Shown here piece by piece: positions 1-46,993 of a stretch of DNA of 64,000 nt. A model generated the notes under the pieces. That model made no database searches. It was not told the origin of the DNA and saw nothing but the letters and a program-made list of their open reading frames with translations. The position numbers and the translations under genes are program-made. The first letter of the stretch is position 1, and each line of letters opens with the position of its first letter. The DNA lies in contig NC_058368.1 in assembly GCF_018350175.1 (NCBI RefSeq), positions 63,614,001-63,678,000 of the forward strand. Direction: 5' to 3'. Source of the stretch: Felis catus. Its lineage: Eukaryota.

Positions 1-1370
1 GTTTCACACTCAAGTAGCAGGCTGTGTATATATGCTAACAATATATAGGCCTTCTGTCTCCTGAGCTGGTTAACGTGTTGCAGAACGTTGACTTCTAATT
101 CATGACTCAAGTGTGAGAAAGCATTCTGTTTAGCATACCTTTCTCTGCTTTATAGACATAGAATATATACATCCATATTAGAAATGCTTGTTTTTGGTTA
201 TAAAAGTAAAGATTTAAGTGTGTGATTTTGTGTAAATATTGATAAACTATGGCTAGAAACACAGCTCTGAGTGTATCATCTGTTGAAGGATCAACGATGC
301 CATTTATATATATGGGAGACAGCATTACTGTTCTACCTGTGAATATTATGTTGACCCTATTTGTCTAAATTTGTAGATTGCCAAATGTTACTTATTTTAT
401 ATTGAATCTAGAACCAAAAAAAACCCCCTCATAATAGCCAAAATAATACTCTTGTGATAGCCAAAATACTTAATACTCTTCTGAAAAAAATTTTGTTTTT
501 ATATTTAAATGAATAATATCAATATATACTTTTATAGGACAGTGCCTGTATTCCATAAAATGGATGAATCTATAAGTTCCAGCGATACATTATTATGAGG
601 AATATTTGTAAAAAGGTACAGTAATAACAAATGCCATTTTAAAAGGTTTATTGAACCAGTTTTTAATGTCCTCAGTGATATGCTTATCCTGAATCTATAT
701 TTAAAACTATCTCATTAATTTTAAGCCGTGAAAGTGCCTTCTTAGGTTTCTTAGAAAATATTTATGTGCAGGTAAGGGGAAAAGGGAGGAGACTAATGCT
801 TTATTGAAGATCTTTTGTTCCAGACACTGTGCTAGTTGTGTACAACACCCTGGGACACGAGGCAAAGGTGGTCGTTATCCTGTTGGGACTTGAAGTCTCT
901 GGAGAAAGAAAGAAATAAAATATAATCAATTAAATGCACAAAAGCGAATGTTTGGGTAAGCACCAGGGTGCAGGCCAATACAAGGGACTGTTAGCGCTTC
1001 AGTCATCAACAGGAAATGGACAGGAATGGACAGCAAAACTGTTAAGTCTTAGCACAACAGCTTTCAGTGTGTTTAAATGACCTTGTAACTATTTATCAGG
1101 AATAGGACCCCATATGCAATGTGATTGTTCCTGTAGTCACTGTCTAATTAGAGTCAAGAAAACAACCAAAATGGTAGCCCAGATGATTACAGATCTTAGG
1201 AAAATACAGACTTTCTGGAATGTGGCCACTTTCCCCAACAGAACTAATCTGTCCCTTCCTGAAAGCAAGATGTGGTGCCATCATCTTTTCCTTTTCCCCT
1301 CCCCCACCTCCTGTCTTTCTACCTCATTGACAACTCCTTCTCTGTGAAGGTTCTTTTGAAACGCTTCTTT

Positions 1371-1749
1371 CGGATTTTCCATGTATAATATCATATCATC
1401 TGCAAAAAGTGAAAGCTTAACTTCATCTTTGCCAATTTTGATGCCTTTGATTTCCTTTTGTTGTCTGATTGCTGATGCTAGAACTTCCAACACTATGTTA
1501 AACAACAGCGGTGAAAGTGGACATCCCTGTCGTGTTCCTGATCTCAGGGAAAAAGTTCTCAGTTTTTCCCCATTGAGGATGATGTTAGCTGTGGGCTTTT
1601 CATAAATGGCTTTTATGATGTTTAAGTATGTTCCTTCTATCCCGACTTTCTCGAGGGTTTTTATTAAGAAACGTTGCTGAATTTTGTCAAATGCCTTTTC
1701 TGCATCGATTGACAGGATCATATGGTTCTTTTCTTTTATTAATGAGATG
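1371..1749 (-). mobile_element. L1 (young felid LINE-1) ORF2 RT segment, inverted 5' part of a twin-primed insertion
   Basis: Minus-strand translation [18 protein letters not shown]...[21 protein letters not shown]...[14 protein letters not shown] contains the L1 RT motifs, including FADD. Confidence 0.95.
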
Positions 1750-3642
1750 CTAGAACTGATACATGAATTTAGCAAAGTTGCAGCATACAAAATCAATGTA
1801 CAGAAATCAGTTGCATTCTTATACACTAATAATGAAGCAACAGAAAGACAAATAAAGAAACTGATCCTATTCACAATTGCACCAAGAAGCATAAAATACC
1901 TAGGGATAAATCTAACCAAAGATGTAAAAGATCTGTATGCTGAAAACTATAGAGAGCTTATGAAGGAAATTGAAGAAGATATAAAGAAATGGAAAAACAT
2001 TCCGTGCTCATGGATTGGAAGAATAAATATTGTCAAAATGTCAATACTACCCAAAGCTATCTACACATTCAATGCAATCCCAATCAAAATTGCAGCAGCA
2101 TTCTTCTCGAAGCTAGAACAAGCAATCCTAAAATTCATATGGAACCACAAAAGGCCCTGAATAGCCAAAGTAATTTTGAAGAAGACCAAAGCAGGAGGCA
2201 TCACAATCCCAGACTTTAGCCTCTACTACAAAGCTGTCATCATCAAGACAGCATGGTATTGGCACAAAAACAGACACATAGACCAATGGAATAGAATAGA
2301 AACCGCAGAACTAGACCCACAAAAGTATGGCCAACTAATCTTTGACAAAGCAGGAAAGAACATCCAATGGAAAAAAGACAGTGTCTTTAACAAATGGTGC
2401 TGGGAGAACTGGACAGCAACATGCAGAAGGATGAAACTAGACCACTTTCTCACACCATTCACAAAAATAAACTCAAAATGGATAAAGGACCTGAAGGTGA
2501 GACAGGAAACCATCAAAACCCTGGAGGAGAAAGCAGGAAAAGACCTCTCTGATCTCAGTCGTAGCAATTTCTTACTTGACACATCCCCAAAAGCAAGGGA
2601 ATTAAAAGCAAAAATGAACTACTGGGACCTCATGAAGATAAAAAGCTTCTGCACAGCAAAGGAAACAATCAACAAAACTAAAAGGCAACCAACGGAATGG
2701 GAAAAGATATTTGCAAATGATATATTGGACAAAGGGCTAGTATCCAAAATCTATAAAGAGCTCACCAAACTCCACACCCGAAAAACAAATAACCCAGTGA
2801 AGAAATGGGCAGAAAACATGAATAGACACTTCTCTAAAGAAGACACCCGGATGGCACATGAAAAGATGTTCAACGTCACTCCTCATCAGGGAAATACAAA
2901 TCAAAACCACACTCAGATATCACCTCATGCCAGTCAGAGTGGCCAAAATGAACAAATCAGGAGACTATATAGATGCTGGAGAGGATGTGGAGAAACGGGA
3001 ACCCTCTTGCACTGTTGGTGGGAATGCAAACAGGTGCAGCTGCTCTGGAAAACAGTGTGGAGGTTCCTCAAAAAATTAAAAATAGACCTACCCTATGACC
3101 CAGCAGTAGCACTGCGAGGAATTTACCCAAGGGATACAGGAGTACTGATGCATAGGGGCACTTGTACCCCAATGTTTATAGCAGCACTCTCAACAATAGC
3201 CAAATTGTGGAAAGAGCCTAAATGTCCATCAACTGATGAATGGATAAAGAAATTGTGGTTTATATACACAATGAAGTACTACGTGGCAATGAGAAAGAAT
3301 GAAATATGGCCCTGTGTAGCAACGTGGATGGAACTGGAGAGTGTTATGCTAAGTGAAATAAACCATACAGAGAAAGATAGATACCATATGTTTTCACTCT
3401 TATGTGGATCCTGAGAAACTTAACAGGAACCCATGAGGGAGGGGAAGGAAAAAAAAAAGAGGTTAGAGTGGGAGAGAGCCAAAGCATAAGAGACTCTTAA
3501 AAACTGAGAACAAACTGAGGATTGATGGGGGGTGGGAGGGAGGGGAGGGTGGGTGATGGGTATTGAGGAGGGCACCTTTTGGGATGAGCACTGGGTGTTG
3601 TATGGAAACCAATTTGACAATATATTTCATATATTGGGAAAA
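1748..3642 (+). mobile_element. L1 ORF2 C-terminal half plus 3'UTR and short A tail; disabled
   Basis: [20 protein letters not shown]...HCWWECK...[11 protein letters not shown]. Premature TGA at 2158-2160 and frameshifts near 2177 and 2850-2960. G-rich 3'UTR. Shared target duplication cgcttcttt at 1362-1370 and 3647-3655. Confidence 0.95.
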
Positions 3643-3677
3643 AAACCGCTTCTTTATCGCCAACATTTGTCTTCGGC

Positions 3678-3920
3678 CAGTGCTTCTCACCCAGAGACCA
3701 TTGATTATGCCCAAGGGGTATGTTTAGCAATGTCTGGGGTCACAACTGGGGAGGGTGCCTCTGACATCAAGTGGGTGGAATTCAGAAATGCTCCTATCCT
3801 ACCACACACAGGGCAGCTCTCTCACAAAGAAAACAAAGCAAAACAGAAGAACCCCCAAAAGCAAAAAAAAAAAAAACTCCCCAACAACCCCAATGGTCTG
3901 GCCTAAGGATGAGAAACGTT
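3678..3920. mobile_element. MER20-like hAT DNA transposon relic, interrupted by an A/C-rich stretch
   Basis: cagtgcttctca... terminus and gcaatgtctgg...cacaactggggagggtgc..tgacatc.agtgggt motifs. Confidence 0.55.
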
Positions 3921-4429
3921 CTAAATTTAATAAATGAAACTCTTCCCTTAGTTGGTCTCATTGAAACCCTCATTATTTAGTACCATTTGTGTGTCAAACT
4001 CCCAAACTTACAGTTTCAGTGTGGATCTCTTGCCAGGGCTCCTTGCAAACCTGCACACCCTGCGCATTCTCCGTTTCTATGACCAGTACCACGGATGCAT
4101 CCAGGCCCAAATACTAAGGCTTATCTGTAATTCCTGTTTCTTTCTCACCTGTCAGATCCCACCCAAGACATCCAAGTTATCTTCCGCCTCCAATGTATGT
4201 CTGATCTAACCACTTCTCATTACTTCTACCCAATCTTAACTCTCCTCTGCAATACAGAAATACTTATGGTCAAAATAACAATTAGGTGCACTTGTAAGAA
4301 CAAAATCAAATCATGTTCCCCCCCTACTTCCTTTCTTCATTGTGAAAATCCCTCCTAAGTGTGATCTAGAAGGCATTGTGTGAACCTACCTCATCTCCTA
4401 TCTTTCTCCCCTTTGTTCACATACAGGGC

Positions 4430-12999: not shown

Positions 13000-13417
13000 T
13001 AGCCCATACACTTCTGATTAATGTATTTAGATCAAATACTTTTGGCTGAATTAACAAAATAAGCAAAAATAAAAGTTTCCTGATGTAGCTCTGTACTTAT
13101 ATGTAACAGTTAATTTGTTTCCTGTTATATAATGTATTTGTCAGGTAATAGTAATTAGTTAATTGAATAGACATATTTAATATTTGATCAAAATGTTAAT
13201 AAAATATTTGAGCAAAGAGTTAATAGTTTACAACATTTTGTTTCGTGGTTGGCTTCATGGACAATACATACATTTTTTTTTTAACAGCAACTGCTTTAGT
13301 AAATCAATTTCTCACATAGTACATGAGCCCCTTCTGATCATTAATGCCTGACATGTGACATGTAATGGTAATCAAATAAACAGGTGATTATTCTGAAAAA
13401 TATTACATCTGTTCCAG

Positions 13418-13579
13418 GACCTGATCTACAGGTTTGCATATCCAAAAAACCTACCTGTTGCACCAGGAAGATGGAGGAGAGATACCAGACTGCAGCTCGC
13501 CAAGATATGCAGGAAGTTCTTCAATCATCCAGCTCCACATTAAAGTTTCTAATATCGCGAAATGCTGCTGCTTTTCAAG
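13418..13579 (+). CDS. GPC5: Glypican-5 internal coding exon (exon 2), 162 nt, phase 1-1
   Basis: Translation (G)[53 protein letters not shown] matches the N-terminal Cys-rich glypican domain of GPC5 as recalled. Acceptor ttccAG at 13416-13417 and donor CAAG|GTAAAT at 13580. The ORF-track extensions on either side are intronic. Confidence 0.95.
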
Positions 13580-15242
13580 GTAAATGTATCTTGATTTCTG
13601 AAACTAAGGAGAAGTCTTGTTATGCAATCTTCCTATTACAATTATCCTGGTAAACTTGGGCTAGGTTTTCTTACCTTTGCATACCATCATTCTGGAACAA
13701 AATGAAGTTTTAACTTCTTTTAACCCTCAGAAAAAGGTCATTATTTCTGAGGTCAATCAGGACATAAATACTGAGTTGGACTGGGAAAACTGTTATATTA
13801 GTGAAATAGTCCTTGGACATATGTGCCCTTTGTGGGTCCTTCCAGGTCCCTCAGTATTCTGACCTATGGTTTTACTGCAGTATGAATGGACATAATTATT
13901 AGATTTTAGTATTCTGTAACATAAAATCTCATTGCTTTTAACTAGGAAATTATAGATTTATTTTTAAAAATATGATTTGAAGAAATATTTGTCTAAGTTT
14001 TTCCCCTGGCTACCTCATGTGGTTTTCATAAGAACACCAGTGTGATATGTCAAAGTGCAGACAAGTCTGATAAACAGTAAAATAGGAAATATTAATTGGA
14101 TATTTAAGGATCAGCTAAGACCAGAACTCAACCTTAATTCAAACAGTATGTTCAGAAATAAAATTAATGGGTTATAAAATTACAAGGCACATTGGAAAAT
14201 AGATGATCTTTCCCTTATTTTAGTCATCATCTCCATAAAACCCCTTATTACTACAATAAAATAGCTTAATTTATTTTTCCTTTTATAAAACATTAGCTTA
14301 ACTGTATATGATTCAAATGAAAATATCTAGATTATACTACTTTCAAACAAATTTATTGCTTTTGTTCAAAGCAAAATAGACTTTTGTTAGTATTCCTTTT
14401 CCTTTATGTATATTATTGTCAGTCTATTTAAATAATTTGTGCTTTGTTTACATGCATAACTAAATCACAAAGCTGATTAATTTTTAAAACTATGTTCATT
14501 AAATAACATAAATACAATGAATCAGGATAAAATTTAAGTGGAATTAAAATGTAGTTTATGATGAATTAGTGATTTTCTTAGGGAAACTGTGATATGTCAA
14601 ATTTTAAGATGTTATTACTTTAGTGATTTTTTAGATGTCTTAGAAAACAACTTTATGTCTGTTATGGGATTTATTCATATGAAATTGTTGGAGGAAAACA
14701 TGTTGATGTGCCTTGTAAGCAAAGATTTGTGATTTGAACTGGCTGAACCAGAAGACTATAACCACATACACAGAGTGATGTGATGGTTTTTTTCTCATGG
14801 AAATGACAACATGCACAATATGGACAATACATTCTAGAGGTAAAGGGCAGTGAATAAACCAGTCTGACCAGAACAGGGATGGGGAGTGTGGTGGAGATTC
14901 TATGCTTGAAAAGGTGAGCTGGGCTCACATGGAAGGAGATTTAGAGCATCAACTTGAGTTTGAGTCATTAAAGTTTATTGAACAGGAAAGCTTCATAATG
15001 ATTTCTTATCTTTTAATGTCAAAACTAATCCTTTCAACTAAGAATATATGGCTGAAGAAGATCATGACCAATGAAACCGACCTTTTTGGATAGCAGAGCT
15101 AATTATAGAAGTGAAAGAAAGTGCTATCGTTGCTAATATATTGGCACTCAGTGAATGTTGAACATTTTCTTCTACCTTCAAAGATACCTTAACAAACCTT
15201 TTACACATTGTTGGATAAATTGATCAAGATAGAATACATCAT

Positions 15243-24990: not shown

Positions 24991-26083
24991 AATTGGTCCT
25001 TTCTCAACAGCATGGAGAAATAAATAAATACATAGCCTTCAGAGCAATGTGAAAGTTTTTGTGGTTGGTGGAATATGATAAAAATTTAATCTAAGATTTA
25101 ATTGAACTACTTTAAAAGCCTATGTTCATTAAGATAATTTTTATTTTGGTCTAAATGTTGCTAATCATTGTTCCATAAAATCATGTAACTATCTGATAGT
25201 TGCATTTCCTCTGCTGAAAATGTGAAATATTATTTTTTGTCTACAAGGCATCTTAGAGGGTTTCCTCTCTACATGAGGAAAGACAGTCTGGAGAACGATG
25301 GGCACTTACAGTCTCTGGAAAGTATGATTTGGGAAAAGGGTCAGAGGTGTGGGGCAAAAGCATCCACTCCACTGGTTCAAGAAGGAACAATACATGCTGT
25401 GTTTATGTTTCAATTTTTAAAATCTGAGTTTAACATGCTTACTTTCTAGTGGTAGTCCCAGGGCAATACTTTAGGATGATCAAGGCCGGCTGCTTAATTT
25501 GTTTTTATTGCATATCTTCAAAATAGGTTTAAATTAAATTATCTATGTATTTGGCAACTCTTACTCAATATATTTTGTGTATTTGCTATTTTAATGAGAA
25601 CATATTTTTGAATGCAAATTAAGAATATATTTAACAATTGCTAGTCTACACTGGTATAGCTATTCTGGAAAGCAATTTGACAATAGTTATTTAAGATATA
25701 TGTTCTTTCTCTTGTCTTTCTGATCCTTCTAATGGTTGTATATATTGGAAACGTTTTTAAAGAGACTGTTTAGGCACATGTAGAAGCATGGTAATGAAAG
25801 CATTTATAGTAATAGCTGGGAATTGAGACAGTTTGGGTGTCTGATTGTCAGAAAGCTAAGGACAATGTATAGATAATACATTCTGCATCATTAGGAATGA
25901 TCAACTGGATACATACATAGTGACATGGATAGACTTTAAAAACATAAGGTAGAGTGAAGGTATATGAGGTATATAGCACAATACCATATATGTATCTTAA
26001 AAATACATGTATCAAAGAATTCTATACATTTTACTAGAACTCATACAAATCAAAGAGTTTAAAGCACATTAGAATGATTTTTT

Positions 26084-26296
26084 TTAAATTTTTTAAAATG
26101 TTTATTTAGTTTTGAGAGAGAGACAGAACACAAGGAAGGGAGGGCCAGAGAGACAGGGAGACACAGAATCCAAAGCAGGCTCCAGGCTCTGAGCTCTCAG
26201 TACAGAACCCATCGTGGGGCTCGAACCCACCAACCACGAGATCATGACCTGAGCCGAAGTAGGATGCTCAACCGACAGAGCCACCCAGGCGTTCCC
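26084..26296 (-). mobile_element. Can-SINE
   Basis: TSD agaatgatttttt at 26071 and 26297. Confidence 0.92.
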
Positions 26297-26363
26297 AGAA
26301 TGATTTTTTAAGGATAATAATTACGTAATTTGCCATCCAACCTCATAAATAGTAGGAGGCATT

Positions 26364-26766
26364 GGGGGCGACTCCTGGGTTGCTCAGTCAGTTAAGTGTC
26401 AAACTCTTGATTTTGACTCAGGTCATGATTTCAGAATTGTGAGATCCAGTCCCATGTTGGGCTTTGCACTGAGTACAGGGCCTGTTTAAGATTCTCTCTC
26501 TCGGGGCGCCTGGGTGGCGCAGTCGGTTAAGCGTCCGACTTCAGCCAGGTCACGATCTCATGGTCCGTGAGTTCCAGCCCCGCGTCGGGCTCTGGGCTGA
26601 TGGCTCAGAGCCTGGAGCCTGTTTCCGATTCTGTGTCTCCCTCTCTCTCTGCCCCTCCCCCGTTCATGCTCTGTCTCTCTCTGTCCCAAAAATAAATAAA
26701 TGTTGAAAAAAAAAAAAAAAGATTCTCTCTCTCCCTGTCTCTATTCTCCCCTCCCCCTCAAAAAAG
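26364..26766 (+). mobile_element. Older Can-SINE interrupted by a nested young SINE
   Basis: Head at 26364-26502; the CT-rich tail resumes at about 26721. Confidence 0.85.
26503..26718 (+). mobile_element. Young SINEC_Fc-type Can-SINE, nested
   Basis: TSD aagattctctctctc at 26488-26502 and 26719-26733. Confidence 0.95.
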
Positions 26767-29184: not shown

Positions 29185-29406
29185 TCTTTTTTTTTTTTTT
29201 TTCAACGTTTATTTATTTTTTGGGGACAGAGAGAGACAGAGCATGAACGGGGGAGGGGCAGAGAGAGAGGGAGACACAGAATCGGAAACAGGCTCCAGGC
29301 TCCGAGCCATCAGCCCAGAGCCTGACGCGGGGCTCGAACTCACGGACCGCGAGATCGTGACCTGGCTGAAGTCGGACGCTCAACCGACTGCGCCACCCAG
29401 GCGCCT
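29185..29406 (-). mobile_element. Young SINEC_Fc-type Can-SINE
   Basis: CpGs intact, near-identical to the 11613 copy. Confidence 0.95.
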
Positions 29407-42584: not shown

Positions 42585-42930
42585 ATAGTTTCTGTTAGTT
42601 GCAGACAACTGTATTTGATTCTGTCATGCTTAAACTAAAAAGGAGATTAGTTGGAAAAAACTTGAAGTGCTCTCAGTTTAGAAGGAAATGTTGAACTGAG
42701 CTTAAGAAAGAAAAGAACAAGGCAACAAGAATGTTTAGCTAGTTTGTGGACATTTTCTCTAGAACCTTGTCCTAAACATGACAGCAGCAATCACTTCCAG
42801 GCTCTTTGTTTTTCTGTTGAAATTTCAAATTCTGGGAGAGATAATCATATTGACTTAGTTTGAGTCAGGTATCTATTCCATTGGATCAATCAGCTGTAGC
42901 CAGTGGCCCAGATCACATTGTATACACTTC
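42585..42930. mobile_element. Old MLT1J/K-like LTR relic
   Basis: tgttagttgcagaca...gcttaaac.aaaaaggag.tt..ttgg and tcaaattctgggagag...attg.cttagtttgagtcaggt...tggatcaatcagctgtagcca. Confidence 0.5.
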
Positions 42931-43694
42931 ACCACTTGGGGAGTTGGATGGCTGCACGTTTCGTGCCCAGTGTCCTCTAACTATTGGCTACCCAAACCTT
43001 GTGTATTTACCATACCTTCCCCCTTGGCGACAGTTGAATACGGAACTTCTACCCTGACTCCCAGCTTACAGACTCAGAGCCTTTTGCATCAAGGAGACCA
43101 GATATTATTGGGGAAGGACTCAGTTTTACCTTCACTGGATCGTTCTATGAATTCTCCTGTAAGACTTACCAAATAAGACTTTGAACTAGAAGGCTGTACC
43201 TTGCAAAAAGTGGAGTGCCCAAACTTTGGGGTTACATTGGTTAATAGATCTGTGTTAAAACGAATTCCTGTGGCCCTTGAATCACTGTGCTCCAATTCAG
43301 TGATTAAGCTATGGTAAAATATTAACAGTGTTTTTATCTAAACAAAAATTACTACTATGATTATAATAAACACAATTGGATGGTGACCTCAGTTCAGCTA
43401 CAGTCAATCCTAGATGTGGTCTTGAAGCAAATTCATAGAGCTCCCAATATTTTATATGACAAAATAGTCTATATTCTTATACACAGGAATCATGAAAAGC
43501 AACTGTCAGTTATCTAAAAGAGGGCAGTATTTCTCTGACTTTCCCACAGCGCACCTCCAGATCCACTACATAAATAATGCCATGATGATGAGATCTAAAG
43601 AGCAGGAAAGAACACGACAGGGGATAGAGAGAAGTCCCTGGGAAACAAGGAGGCTCCCATGTCAATGCAGTCCCTGTGGTCAAGTCATCTAGGA

Positions 43695-43840
43695 CAGTGC
43701 TTCTCCGATTTCAGTGTGCATACAAATCACCTGAGTATATTATTAAAATACAAATTCTGATTCAGTAAATCTGAGGATCTGCATTTCTAACAAGTTCCTA
43801 AGTGATATGTTGCTAGTTCCTAAATTACACTTGAAGACAT
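43695..43840. mobile_element. MER5A-like DNA transposon relic
   Basis: cagtgcttctc...gtgcatacaaatcacctg...aaattctgattcagta..tctg...atctgcatttctaacaagttcc. Confidence 0.8.
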
Positions 43841-43849
43841 ATAGCTGAT

Positions 43850-44330
43850 CTGTTGGGATGTTTCCTCCAAAACGAATTATTCTTGCCGGGAAGTCATAGT
43901 GACAGATAAGATTTTGGATCTTGGATAGTCTGATTTTAGCCATTTACTATGTCCTTTAATAGACTGTTACATTTGAGTTGGGTACAAAGCCAAAGAAGGG
44001 TCTCTAGCTGGCCCAGGTTCCAGTACCAGTGGTTCTGCCATTCAGGCCTGTATGATGTATGAAGTTTATGGCAAGCTTTCATGGAAAAATCTAGAAGAGA
44101 CACTTGGGGTATAGGATTAAGGCCAAATATCCTTTAGAAGATGTCATTTTTTTGTTTTTGGCTCCAGTGTTTATGGGAAATTAGGTGACCATTTAATCCA
44201 GTCTGCCATCATACACTAAGGTGCTACAGATAATTTAGCTGTAAAGTCAGGGCTACTCAGCAGCTTCCCATAATAAGTAGAATTGGTTTGTGTGATCAAA
44301 CCCCAGAGGGCCCCCAAGGACATGAGTTGA
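43850..44330 (+). pseudogene. Decayed ERVL pol fragment (RT connection/RNase H region)
   Basis: Broken translation FELG..K.L..AQV.V..VLP and MGN*VTI...II...KVRATQQ.PII...DQTPEGPQG resembles ERVL pol FEWGPEQEKALQQVQAAV..LP and MGHQVT...HKVG.AQQHSII...AGPEG as recalled. Many stops and frameshifts. Confidence 0.6.
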
Positions 44331-44996
44331 GTGTTGCTTTGTGGGAAGATCAGAGAAATACTGCTCTTCTTCAGGTAAATGACTATTGCTTTTTGTGATT
44401 CCTGTGTATAAGAATGAAGACAATTTTTGCCATATAAAATACTGGAAGATCTATAAATTTGCTTCAGTTAGAAGACCACATCTAGGATTGATTGTAGCTG
44501 AATTGAAGGAACCTTCCGATTGTGTTTGTTATAATCATAGTAATACTTTTTATTTAGATAAAAGTATGGTTAATGTTATCATAGCCTAATTACTGAATTG
44601 GAGTTCAGTGATCCAGGATCCACAGGAATTCATTTTAACACAGATCTATTAACCAATATAACCCCAAAGTTTGGGCATTCCTCTTTTTGCAAGGTATAAC
44701 CTTCTAGTTCAAGGTCCTTTTTGGTAAGGCTTAAAGGTTAAAGGAGAGTTCATAGTACAGTCTAGTGAAGGTAAAACTGAGTCCTTCCTCAATAACATCT
44801 GGCTTCCTCTTGATGCAAAAGAGTCTGGGTCTGTGACCTGGGAGTTAGGCTAGAAGCTTTGTCCTCTAGGCTCATCATTCAAGTAAGGCCTTTGTAAGTT
44901 AACACTGAAATTGTTTTGTTTTACAATAATTAATTAAGACCCTAGGGGATGTTAAATGATTTTATTTCCGAAGATCTCTTGATGAATTAATTGTAT

Positions 44997-45072
44997 TCGG
45001 GAATCTTTGTATGTCAAACTATTCGGTGTACCCTCGGGAATCTTTGTGTGTCAAACTATTCAGTGTACCCTC
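44997..45072. repeat. 37-bp tandem duplication
   Basis: tcgggaatctttgt(a/g)tgtcaaactattc(g/a)gtgtaccc at 44997 and 45034. Confidence 0.92.
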
Positions 45073-45454
45073 ACGACTACTCCAGCCCTATTGCTTGTTA
45101 TGATGCGCATGCCCACTTGGCTTCTGGTAATTAAATGCCTCCTCCTGAGCTTGGGCATCCTGGGCTCCTGTGTGATTTCCAGCAGGTTTGGCGTTCACAT
45201 TAAACTTACCCAGTAACATTTCTGCCCTAGAAGTAATAGTTGGTCAGTCACTATTGAAAATTTGGATTGTCTTAACTTGTCTTAACACTATCCCTTTTAA
45301 CGAGGGAGTGGAGAACATTGTAGATTGATATTCAATTATATATGTCATACCTTCCCTGAATTTATTGTTCATCATTAATATTATCTTCATATGTATTTTT
45401 AGAGACAGCATTGTCAAATTAAAGCTAAGTTTTAGTTTAGAAAGTGGCAGTTCA

Positions 45455-45675
45455 GGGGCGCCTGGGTGGCGCAGTCGGTTAAGCGTCCGACTTCAGCCAG
45501 GTCACAATCTTGCGGTCCGTGAGTTCGAGCCCCGCGTCAGGCTCTGGGCTGATGGCTCAGAGCCTGGAGCCTGTTTCCGATTCTGTGTCTCCCTCTCTCT
45601 CTGCCCCTCCCCTGTTCATGCTCTGTCTCTCTCTGTCCCAAAAATAAATAAAAAAACGTTGAAAAAAAAATTTAA
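45455..45675 (+). mobile_element. Young SINEC_Fc-type Can-SINE
   Basis: TSD aaagtggcagttca at 45441-45454 and 45676-45689. Confidence 0.95.
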
Positions 45676-45989
45676 AAAGTGGCAGTTCATTTGCTTTTGT
45701 AGTACATTTTGTAGAATGCATTTTTTTGTTAAATGAGCTCTCTTCTCTATAATGTTTTGACATTCTTTTTTTTTTTTTTTTTTTTTTTTTTTGGTATTCA
45801 CCCAATGATATCTCATTTGCTTCTTAGGTTAATTGCTGATGTATTGAAGAGAGCACTGTGACATATTGGGAAGTGATGTGATAGAAGGGAACACACAGCA
45901 TCAGAAACAAAGCAGCAGGTCCTGACTCTGTCTCTCACCAGCTCAGTGAGCTTGGAAGGGGTCTCAACTTCTTTGGACCTTAATTTCTT

Positions 45990-45990
<1 letters not shown>

Positions 45991-46033
<43 letters not shown>
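45991..46033. repeat. (AC)n microsatellite
   Basis: Perfect AC run. Confidence 0.95.
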
Positions 46034-46037
<4 letters not shown>

Positions 46038-46827
46038 AGGAGAAGAAAATATTTTCTCTATCTGATAGGATTTTTTGCTTTACTTAGGATAATTTAAATC
46101 TTATGTATGTCAGGAAGTCTTTATAAGCCCACTCTGCAAGCCAAGCTCTGTTCTCGCTCAAAATCCGCAAGAAGCAATTAATAATAAGCTGTGTGTTAGG
46201 GCTCTAAATTCTGAGAAAACTTAATAACATTTGTAAAAAATCAAAGAAACAAAATTATTTTGAACACAGTTACAATATGTGTATACCTGGTTGTGTGCAT
46301 ATATGTGTTCATGTAGGCATGAACATTCCTGTTTTGAGAGAGGTTGGAGAAGGTGTAGCAAAGAAGAGGCATATTTTTCTGCTTGTTTTTGCATATTTTA
46401 TCGGGAAATATGATTTTTAATGATTTTTCGTTTAAAATAGTGGAGCTATCTCTCAGGATAGAGAGTAGTCCAAAAATGGAAAACAGGGTGCTTTAATTGA
46501 GAGACCATTGATTAAATAAACAGGTACTGAAGGCTTGCTGTATTCCTTGATATTTTATAGGTACAGTGACAGTATTTGTACTTTTCCGGCCTCTCAAGTG
46601 TAATACTTCCTAGAACAAACAAGGACAATTAAGGGTAATTTGTATGATCTGACGATAAAAGTAGAATTTCTGATTTTTTAAGGCAGAATTAAGTAATATT
46701 CTAGTTGTAAAAGGAAATCTTCTTTTTCACCCTCAACTCTCTGCCCACTACAAACCATGCCAACTCAGTGGGAAAACTAATCCCTTAAAAAATGCTTCTC
46801 TAAAGTCAGTGAACACTACTGTATTCT

Positions 46828-46993
46828 ATGCTTGCTACTCAAAGTATGGTTTACAGACCAGCAATGTGGGCATCTCCTGAGAGGTTCTAAGAAAAGCAGA
46901 CTCTCAGGCCCTACCCCAGGACTACTGAATCATTATCCTCATTTTAGCAAGATGATGTGATGCTTATGCACATTAAAGTTTGAGAAGCACCAC
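46828..46993. mobile_element. MER5A-like DNA transposon relic
   Basis: ctactcaaagtatggt...gaccagca...gcagactctcaggccc.accccag..ctactgaatca...tgcacattaaagtttgagaagcac. Confidence 0.85.

Follow-up and report, generated by a model that had tools for sequence, protein, structure and literature searches.

A 0.5-kb inverted repeat downstream of a glypican exon in the cat as the probable product of a rearranged ERV-L-class provirus

Background

Loytynoja and Goldman 2017 (PMC5453318, available part) define the outcome of template switching of type 3-1-2-4 as an inverted repeat whose spacer is inverted as well. The model presented there deals with short-range events, and long-range switches are not modelled in that part. 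The provirus rearrangement proposed below belongs to the same outcome class (3-1-2-4 / 1-3-4-2), but it differs from those short-range events in that the fragment is about 1.3 kb long, appears to be tens of My old and is polarised by retroviral gene order and not by an outgroup. Inversions that arise from staggered breaks and are flanked by inverted duplicates have been described in Drosophila chromosomes by Ranz et al. 2007 (PMC1885836, available text). When the break is staggered at one end only (their Figure S5B) a single segment is duplicated, as is the case here, whereas the present event would be a 1.3-kb intronic one in a mammal and not a chromosomal inversion.

The relics of ERV-L (class III) covered by the accessible part of PMC3758187 resemble the present locus in their gag-pro-pol homology and in their interruption by an old MER-type element, and pre-placental ERV-L insertions, older than 104-110 My, with MIR/MER elements are known from the same source. 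The locus studied here differs from them as it is internally rearranged and as its integrase and dUTPase regions were not detected in a scan with the reference locus L011 (see below). Ricksha, which is listed as MuDR in what is available of PMC5753468, also has ERV-L sequence between inverted repeats (PMC1431705, in part). However, its repeats measure 79 bp, are non-retroviral and lie around the 3' end of HERVL, whereas the arms described here consist of 503 bp of gag/pro/RT sequence. Such 79-bp non-retroviral terminal inverted repeats around a 3' HERVL/MLT2B were not found at this locus and identity with Ricksha was rejected. Finally, SINE pairs in inverted orientation that undergo ADAR editing (PMC526178, accessible portion) form an imperfect intramolecular intronic stem comparable to the one predicted here, but they derive from two insertions, whereas the present arms would come from a local duplication.

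The type of rearrangement is already known and the ERV-L locus is a further, fairly ordinary example of it. Its importance is modest and would lie in a clean, datable, kilobase-scale inversion, born with an inverted duplicate and read from retroviral gene order alone. Moreover, it suggests that a single old repeat is enough to give rise to a long intronic dsRNA stem, with no second insertion needed, and the inverted repeat could be of use as a presence/absence marker close to the root of cats or carnivores. No published report of this locus was found among titles and the beginnings of abstracts, most of the subscription literature being outside this scope.

Results and Discussion

The inverted repeat, its host gene and its support in the assembly

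The strongest self-match in the window (the whole 64-kb stretch of DNA analysed) pairs positions 43046-43548 with 44856-44340, at 82.7% over 519 columns (self-blastn, E 6e-149). The inverted repeat with arms of about 510 bp announced in a preliminary description of this DNA is therefore real. In a global alignment of the arms 429 of 501 ungapped columns are identical (85.6%), the mismatches comprising 51 transitions and 21 transversions with 5 gap runs, and the repeat finder split the pair into six collinear ungapped pieces. The arm-arm K2P distance is 0.163 +/- 0.020, or 0.157 without CpG sites. A core of about 129 nt with about 14 mismatches had also been pointed out; the best 130-column stretch does have only 13, although it is unexceptional, chance placement explaining it as well (p 0.70).

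The host gene is indicated by one exon:

13414..13581, plus strand: glypican exon (Pfam Glypican, E 1.3e-16)

From its peptide we take this to be exon 2 of GPC5. As the exon lies on the plus strand, the inverted repeat, downstream of it, would be inside the sense pre-mRNA, in intron 2. The placement in GPC5 intron 2 given by the preliminary description thus stands for a plus-strand glypican gene; the name GPC5 exon 2 is presumed and intron 2 follows by deduction.

All of the 331 words sampled from the surrounding 3.1 kb were present in 14 of the 24 listed sequencing runs. Eight of these 14 were flagged as a possible source, and the six unflagged ones come from four studies, which makes an assembly artefact unlikely. 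RNA runs contained a fraction of 0.06-0.82 of the sampled words, possibly from DNA, and give no evidence of expression.

ERV-L identity of the arms and the spacer

A motif scan of metagenome contigs yielded 33 loci, of which four are of ERV-L type and near-identical in the stretch shown and 29 are unrelated. One of the four, L011, is intact and was used as the reference, although a distant one (about 60-65% identity). It encodes a gag of 576 residues, with Fv1-like proteins among its relatives, and a pol of 1182 residues that includes RT, RNase H and integrase, followed downstream by a dUTPase (RVT_1, RNase_H, rve, dUTPase). This layout is what we assume to be that of ERV-L.

The four intact ERV-L-type elements (L011, L018, L021 and L027) come from public metagenome contigs, and a gag of 99% identity (P0002) carries a trypanosome protein label. 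Both observations are probably due to host contamination.

Compared with L011, the inverted repeat and its spacer resolve into the following segments:

43046..43548, plus strand: left arm, with remnants of the ERV-L gag end, the start of the protease and N-terminal RT (L011, z 11)
43549..43690, plus strand: spacer part 1, decayed region of the RT active site, joined to the left arm without a break (L011 3976-4167, z 4.0)
43691..43835: MER5-like DNA transposon inside ERV-L pol (L011 coordinates resume from 4167 to 4169 across it)
43851..44330, plus strand: spacer part 2, C-terminal half of RT and connection region (L011 4169-4796, z 13.8)
44320..44339: strand-switch junction zone from spacer (plus) to right arm (minus), where both readings overlap and the exact base is not resolvable
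44340..44856, minus strand: right arm, second copy of gag end, protease and N-terminal RT, oriented as the flanks (L011, z 9.1)

The opposite strands of arms and spacer gave z of 1.7 or less. The arms, which the preliminary description did not recognise, are therefore ERV-L gag-end/protease/RT sequence, and the ERVL pol relic that it placed in the spacer was recovered. By nhmmer, 43053-43294 of the left arm corresponds to L011 3029-3289, 43332-43614 (left arm into spacer) corresponds to 3649-4051, and the right arm matches L011 with the pieces 44841-44614 and 44537-44318. The homology to L011 follows the retroviral order of gag, pro and pol.

A sliding scan against L011 was run with 67 scan windows on both strands, the threshold being the 95% control level. 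Over 43001-44350 this level was exceeded by 13 of 17 plus-strand scan windows, one of the 13 being out of register, and the four that failed lie over the MER5-like insert and its edges. On the minus strand six of seven exceeded it over 44276-44875, and among all the remaining scores one of 110 did so. This strand-specific pattern indicates that left arm and spacer form a continuous piece of gag end, protease, RT and connection region, and that the right arm is an inverted copy of its first part. Beyond about L011 position 4970 (integrase, dUTPase) no scan window rose above the control, and this region is either lost or too decayed.

Other searches were negative. None of 24 translated reading frames from the arms, the spacer and the right flank had a Pfam hit. 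The best local match in tblastn with the L011 proteins had an E of 2.1, and this search is uninformative because of frameshifts. A 63-residue frame of the arm had no match in the ESM Atlas or in a homolog search, exact arm motifs had none among viral and metagenome contigs, and the RT motif had none among viral contigs.

Flanks and polarity of the provirus

Outside the arms further remnants were found:

42932..43045, minus strand: probable beginning of RNase H of ERV-L, from the outer border of the left arm (DNA match to L011 4880-4969, p 0.027)
44857..45147, minus strand: C-terminal gag remnant, outward from the right arm (gag proteins against 60 genomic controls)
44997..45072: tandem duplication of 37 bp within the gag remnant (2.1 copies, 94% match)
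45455..45670, plus strand: young SINE inserted in the gag remnant (four further copies elsewhere in the window, at 94-97% identity)
45721..46039, minus strand: further remnant of upstream gag on the far side of the SINE (scores 45 and 47 against control maxima of 38 and 39, for two of three gag proteins)

With the arm excluded, two of six gag proteins scored above all 60 genomic controls on the right flank; for three of the other four, 3 to 6 of the 60 controls scored higher, and the last one gave nothing. At the DNA level this flank gave no match to L011 (p 0.41). No gag signal was found on the plus strand to the left of the left arm. The SINE is presumably a carnivore tRNA-derived one. The 37-bp tandem duplication is a second, younger local copying event.

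The start of RNase H on the minus strand left of the left arm is moderately supported by sequence comparison. An anchored test gave p values of 0.0007, 0.014, 0.042, 0.085 and 0.041 for 30, 40, 50, 70 and 100 bases, respectively, and a comparison at the protein level with 44 pol proteins gave no signal (mean 21.4 for the minus strand, 23.8 for the plus strand and 18-23.5 for shuffles). About 80 reference bases are missing at the outer left junction. The sequence at 42750-42930, which abuts the RNase H-like remnant, resembles what we take to be an MLT1-type LTR.

On the minus strand gag is followed by D, the inverted spacer, an inverted D and the start of RNase H, D being the duplicated 0.5-kb segment. 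The spacer is inverted relative to its flanks, with pol on the plus strand and the right-flank gag on the minus strand, the support from the left flank being moderate. Arms, spacer and flanks thus appear to be one ERV-L provirus, a point missed by the preliminary description.

One template for both arms, and the proposed rearrangement

The three-way alignment of both arms and L011 has 509 ungapped columns, 256 of which agree in all rows. Differences from L011 that are identical in both arms occupy 174 columns, private differences occupy 37 and 22, and all rows differ in 20. In addition, both arms lack about 350 nt of protease/RT relative to L011, the aligner's gap placement being unreliable there. 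Since L011 is distant, the common differences may partly be subfamily features and not decay. These common differences and the common loss argue for an origin of both arms from a single template, and a later inverted duplication, which had been one of the suggestions made for this DNA, is their best reading.

The element inside pol, which we assume to be MER5-like, has a match to Rfam mir-544 at 43726-43811 (50.7 bits, below the gathering score of 66.5). A presumed second copy lies in the window:

46842-46991, strand opposite to the spacer copy: second MER5-like copy (68% identical to the spacer copy)

The MER5A relic reported earlier is accordingly upheld as a MER5-like element by the sub-gathering match and the second copy, the name MER5A itself being presumed. 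The two copies are identical at 91 of 133 positions (K2P 0.43 +/- 0.08), a yardstick that is a single pair of possibly different subfamilies. As the element lies inside pol, the provirus is at least as old as the element. The common lesions of the arms, together with an arm K2P of 0.16 against 0.43 for this one MER5-like pair, indicate that the rearrangement postdates the provirus. The same comparison bore out the earlier remark that the similarity of the arms is higher than expected from the age of their neighbours.

We consider it likely that the locus is one very old minus-strand ERV-L-class provirus in which the middle 1.3 kb was inverted and its first 0.5 kb duplicated by a single later event, with neutral drift since. 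The identities and orientations of the segments, the common lesions and the divergence were read directly, and from them we infer the single event, its mechanism, its date and its neutrality. The provirus, on the minus strand of the intron, would have been long diverged before the rearrangement. A local rearrangement would then have inverted about 1.3 kb, from the gag end through the connection region, with an extra copy of its first 0.5 kb remaining in the original orientation. The most likely mechanism is a pair of template switches (type 3-1-2-4) at a replication fork: synthesis would proceed forward through D, switch to the other strand 0.8 kb further on, run back across spacer and D, and return. 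A staggered break with fill-in and end-joining would give an equal product. The data fit template switching and a one-sided staggered break alike, and the former is slightly favoured because it requires no 0.5-kb overhang. At the inner junction two registers fit almost equally (scores of 69 and 66). A 5-base junction microhomology was considered and dropped, as the second register fits about as well.

The arms would have been identical at birth and have drifted neutrally since. At a felid rate of 1.8e-9 (PMC4643047, accessible part) they separated about 45 My ago (34-56), and the estimate becomes 61 My at 1.33e-9 (PMC6407205, likewise in part) and 37 My at 2.2e-9. The rearrangement would therefore date to roughly 35-60 My ago.

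The same rearrangement could be much older, dating from reverse transcription or soon after integration, with the divergence later reset by arm-to-arm gene conversion. Inverted arms 0.8 kb apart can convert, but the alignment shows no patchiness: besides the ordinary best 130-column window, the longest identical run is within chance expectation (p 0.47) and mismatches are spread evenly. Moreover, identity is similar right up to both ends of the duplicated segment, and this explanation would need one full-length conversion. We regard it as unlikely. Arm-to-arm gene conversion had been raised as a possibility in the preliminary description, and recent conversion patches found no support in the same figures.

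The predicted RNA stem

In the predicted fold of the sense transcript 458 of the 503 left-arm bases pair with the right arm. The longest helix has 36 bp and the predicted arm duplex reaches -667 kcal/mol. By prediction, the strand that is transcribed thus carries long pairable arms, the host gene being on the plus strand. Close inverted repeats in introns are commonly edited (PMC526178, in its available part), which makes incidental editing of the predicted stem plausible. If the model holds, the pre-mRNA may fold into a long imperfect stem that is incidentally edited.

The extent of this pairing, and the frequent editing of inverted repeats this close (PMC526178, same part), could also be explained by selection having retained the stem for a dsRNA role in the host pre-mRNA, as an ADAR substrate or as a source of endo-siRNA. 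However, the mismatches tolerated by sense-strand pairing are not enriched (29 G-U against 22 A-C, p 0.40), no Rfam family reached its gathering score anywhere in the window, and per base the arms are less stable than an inverted pair of SINEs from this intron (-1.33 against -2.08 kcal/mol per nt). The outer 112 nt folded alone are weaker than shuffles. A young duplication accounts for the identity of the arms without selection, and retention of the stem in this way is very unlikely; selection on a sense-strand dsRNA stem, as previously suggested, was not supported by these tests. In a wider form, a hairpin of dead ERV-L pro/pol would be kept in carnivores by selection or repeated conversion, as a source of anti-ERV-L small RNA or as a regulatory edited stem, and this we hold to be very doubtful as well. 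Judged from its sequence, the rearranged provirus shows no sign of use and is probably neutral.

The SINE pair just mentioned (26505-26720 / 29188-29405) is young and inverted, 95.9% identical and 2.5 kb apart, and is the better per-base dsRNA candidate. Two SINEs of opposite orientation also lie at 26078-26720, about 200 bases apart and 79% identical.

Separate insertions and mobile composites

ERV-L is a multicopy family (PMC3758187, available part), and two independent insertions in opposite orientation, nested and later homogenised, could in principle give the same arrangement. But the plus-strand piece begins exactly where the similarity of the arms begins, without upstream gag, and the pieces complement one another as parts of a single genome. 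Moreover, the same stretch of about 350 nt is absent from both arms, and their divergence is under half of the MER5-like yardstick. There is very little probability left for two insertions. A mobile composite with built-in inverted ends, on the pattern of Ricksha, a DNA transposon carrying ERV-L sequence, or an inverted repeat built into a repeat consensus, is likewise very improbable, as Ricksha combines its 79-bp terminal repeats with the 3' part of HERVL and MLT2B (PMC1431705, accessible text), whereas the 503-bp arms here are gag/pro/RT and proviral sequence extends outside them.

Elsewhere in the window, reading frames of an L1 fragment occur on both strands at 1281-3630 (minus strand 1281-1946, plus strand 1681-3414). 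We take this to be a 3' fragment of L1 ORF2, and the presence of frames on both strands suggests a 5'-inverted L1 insertion.
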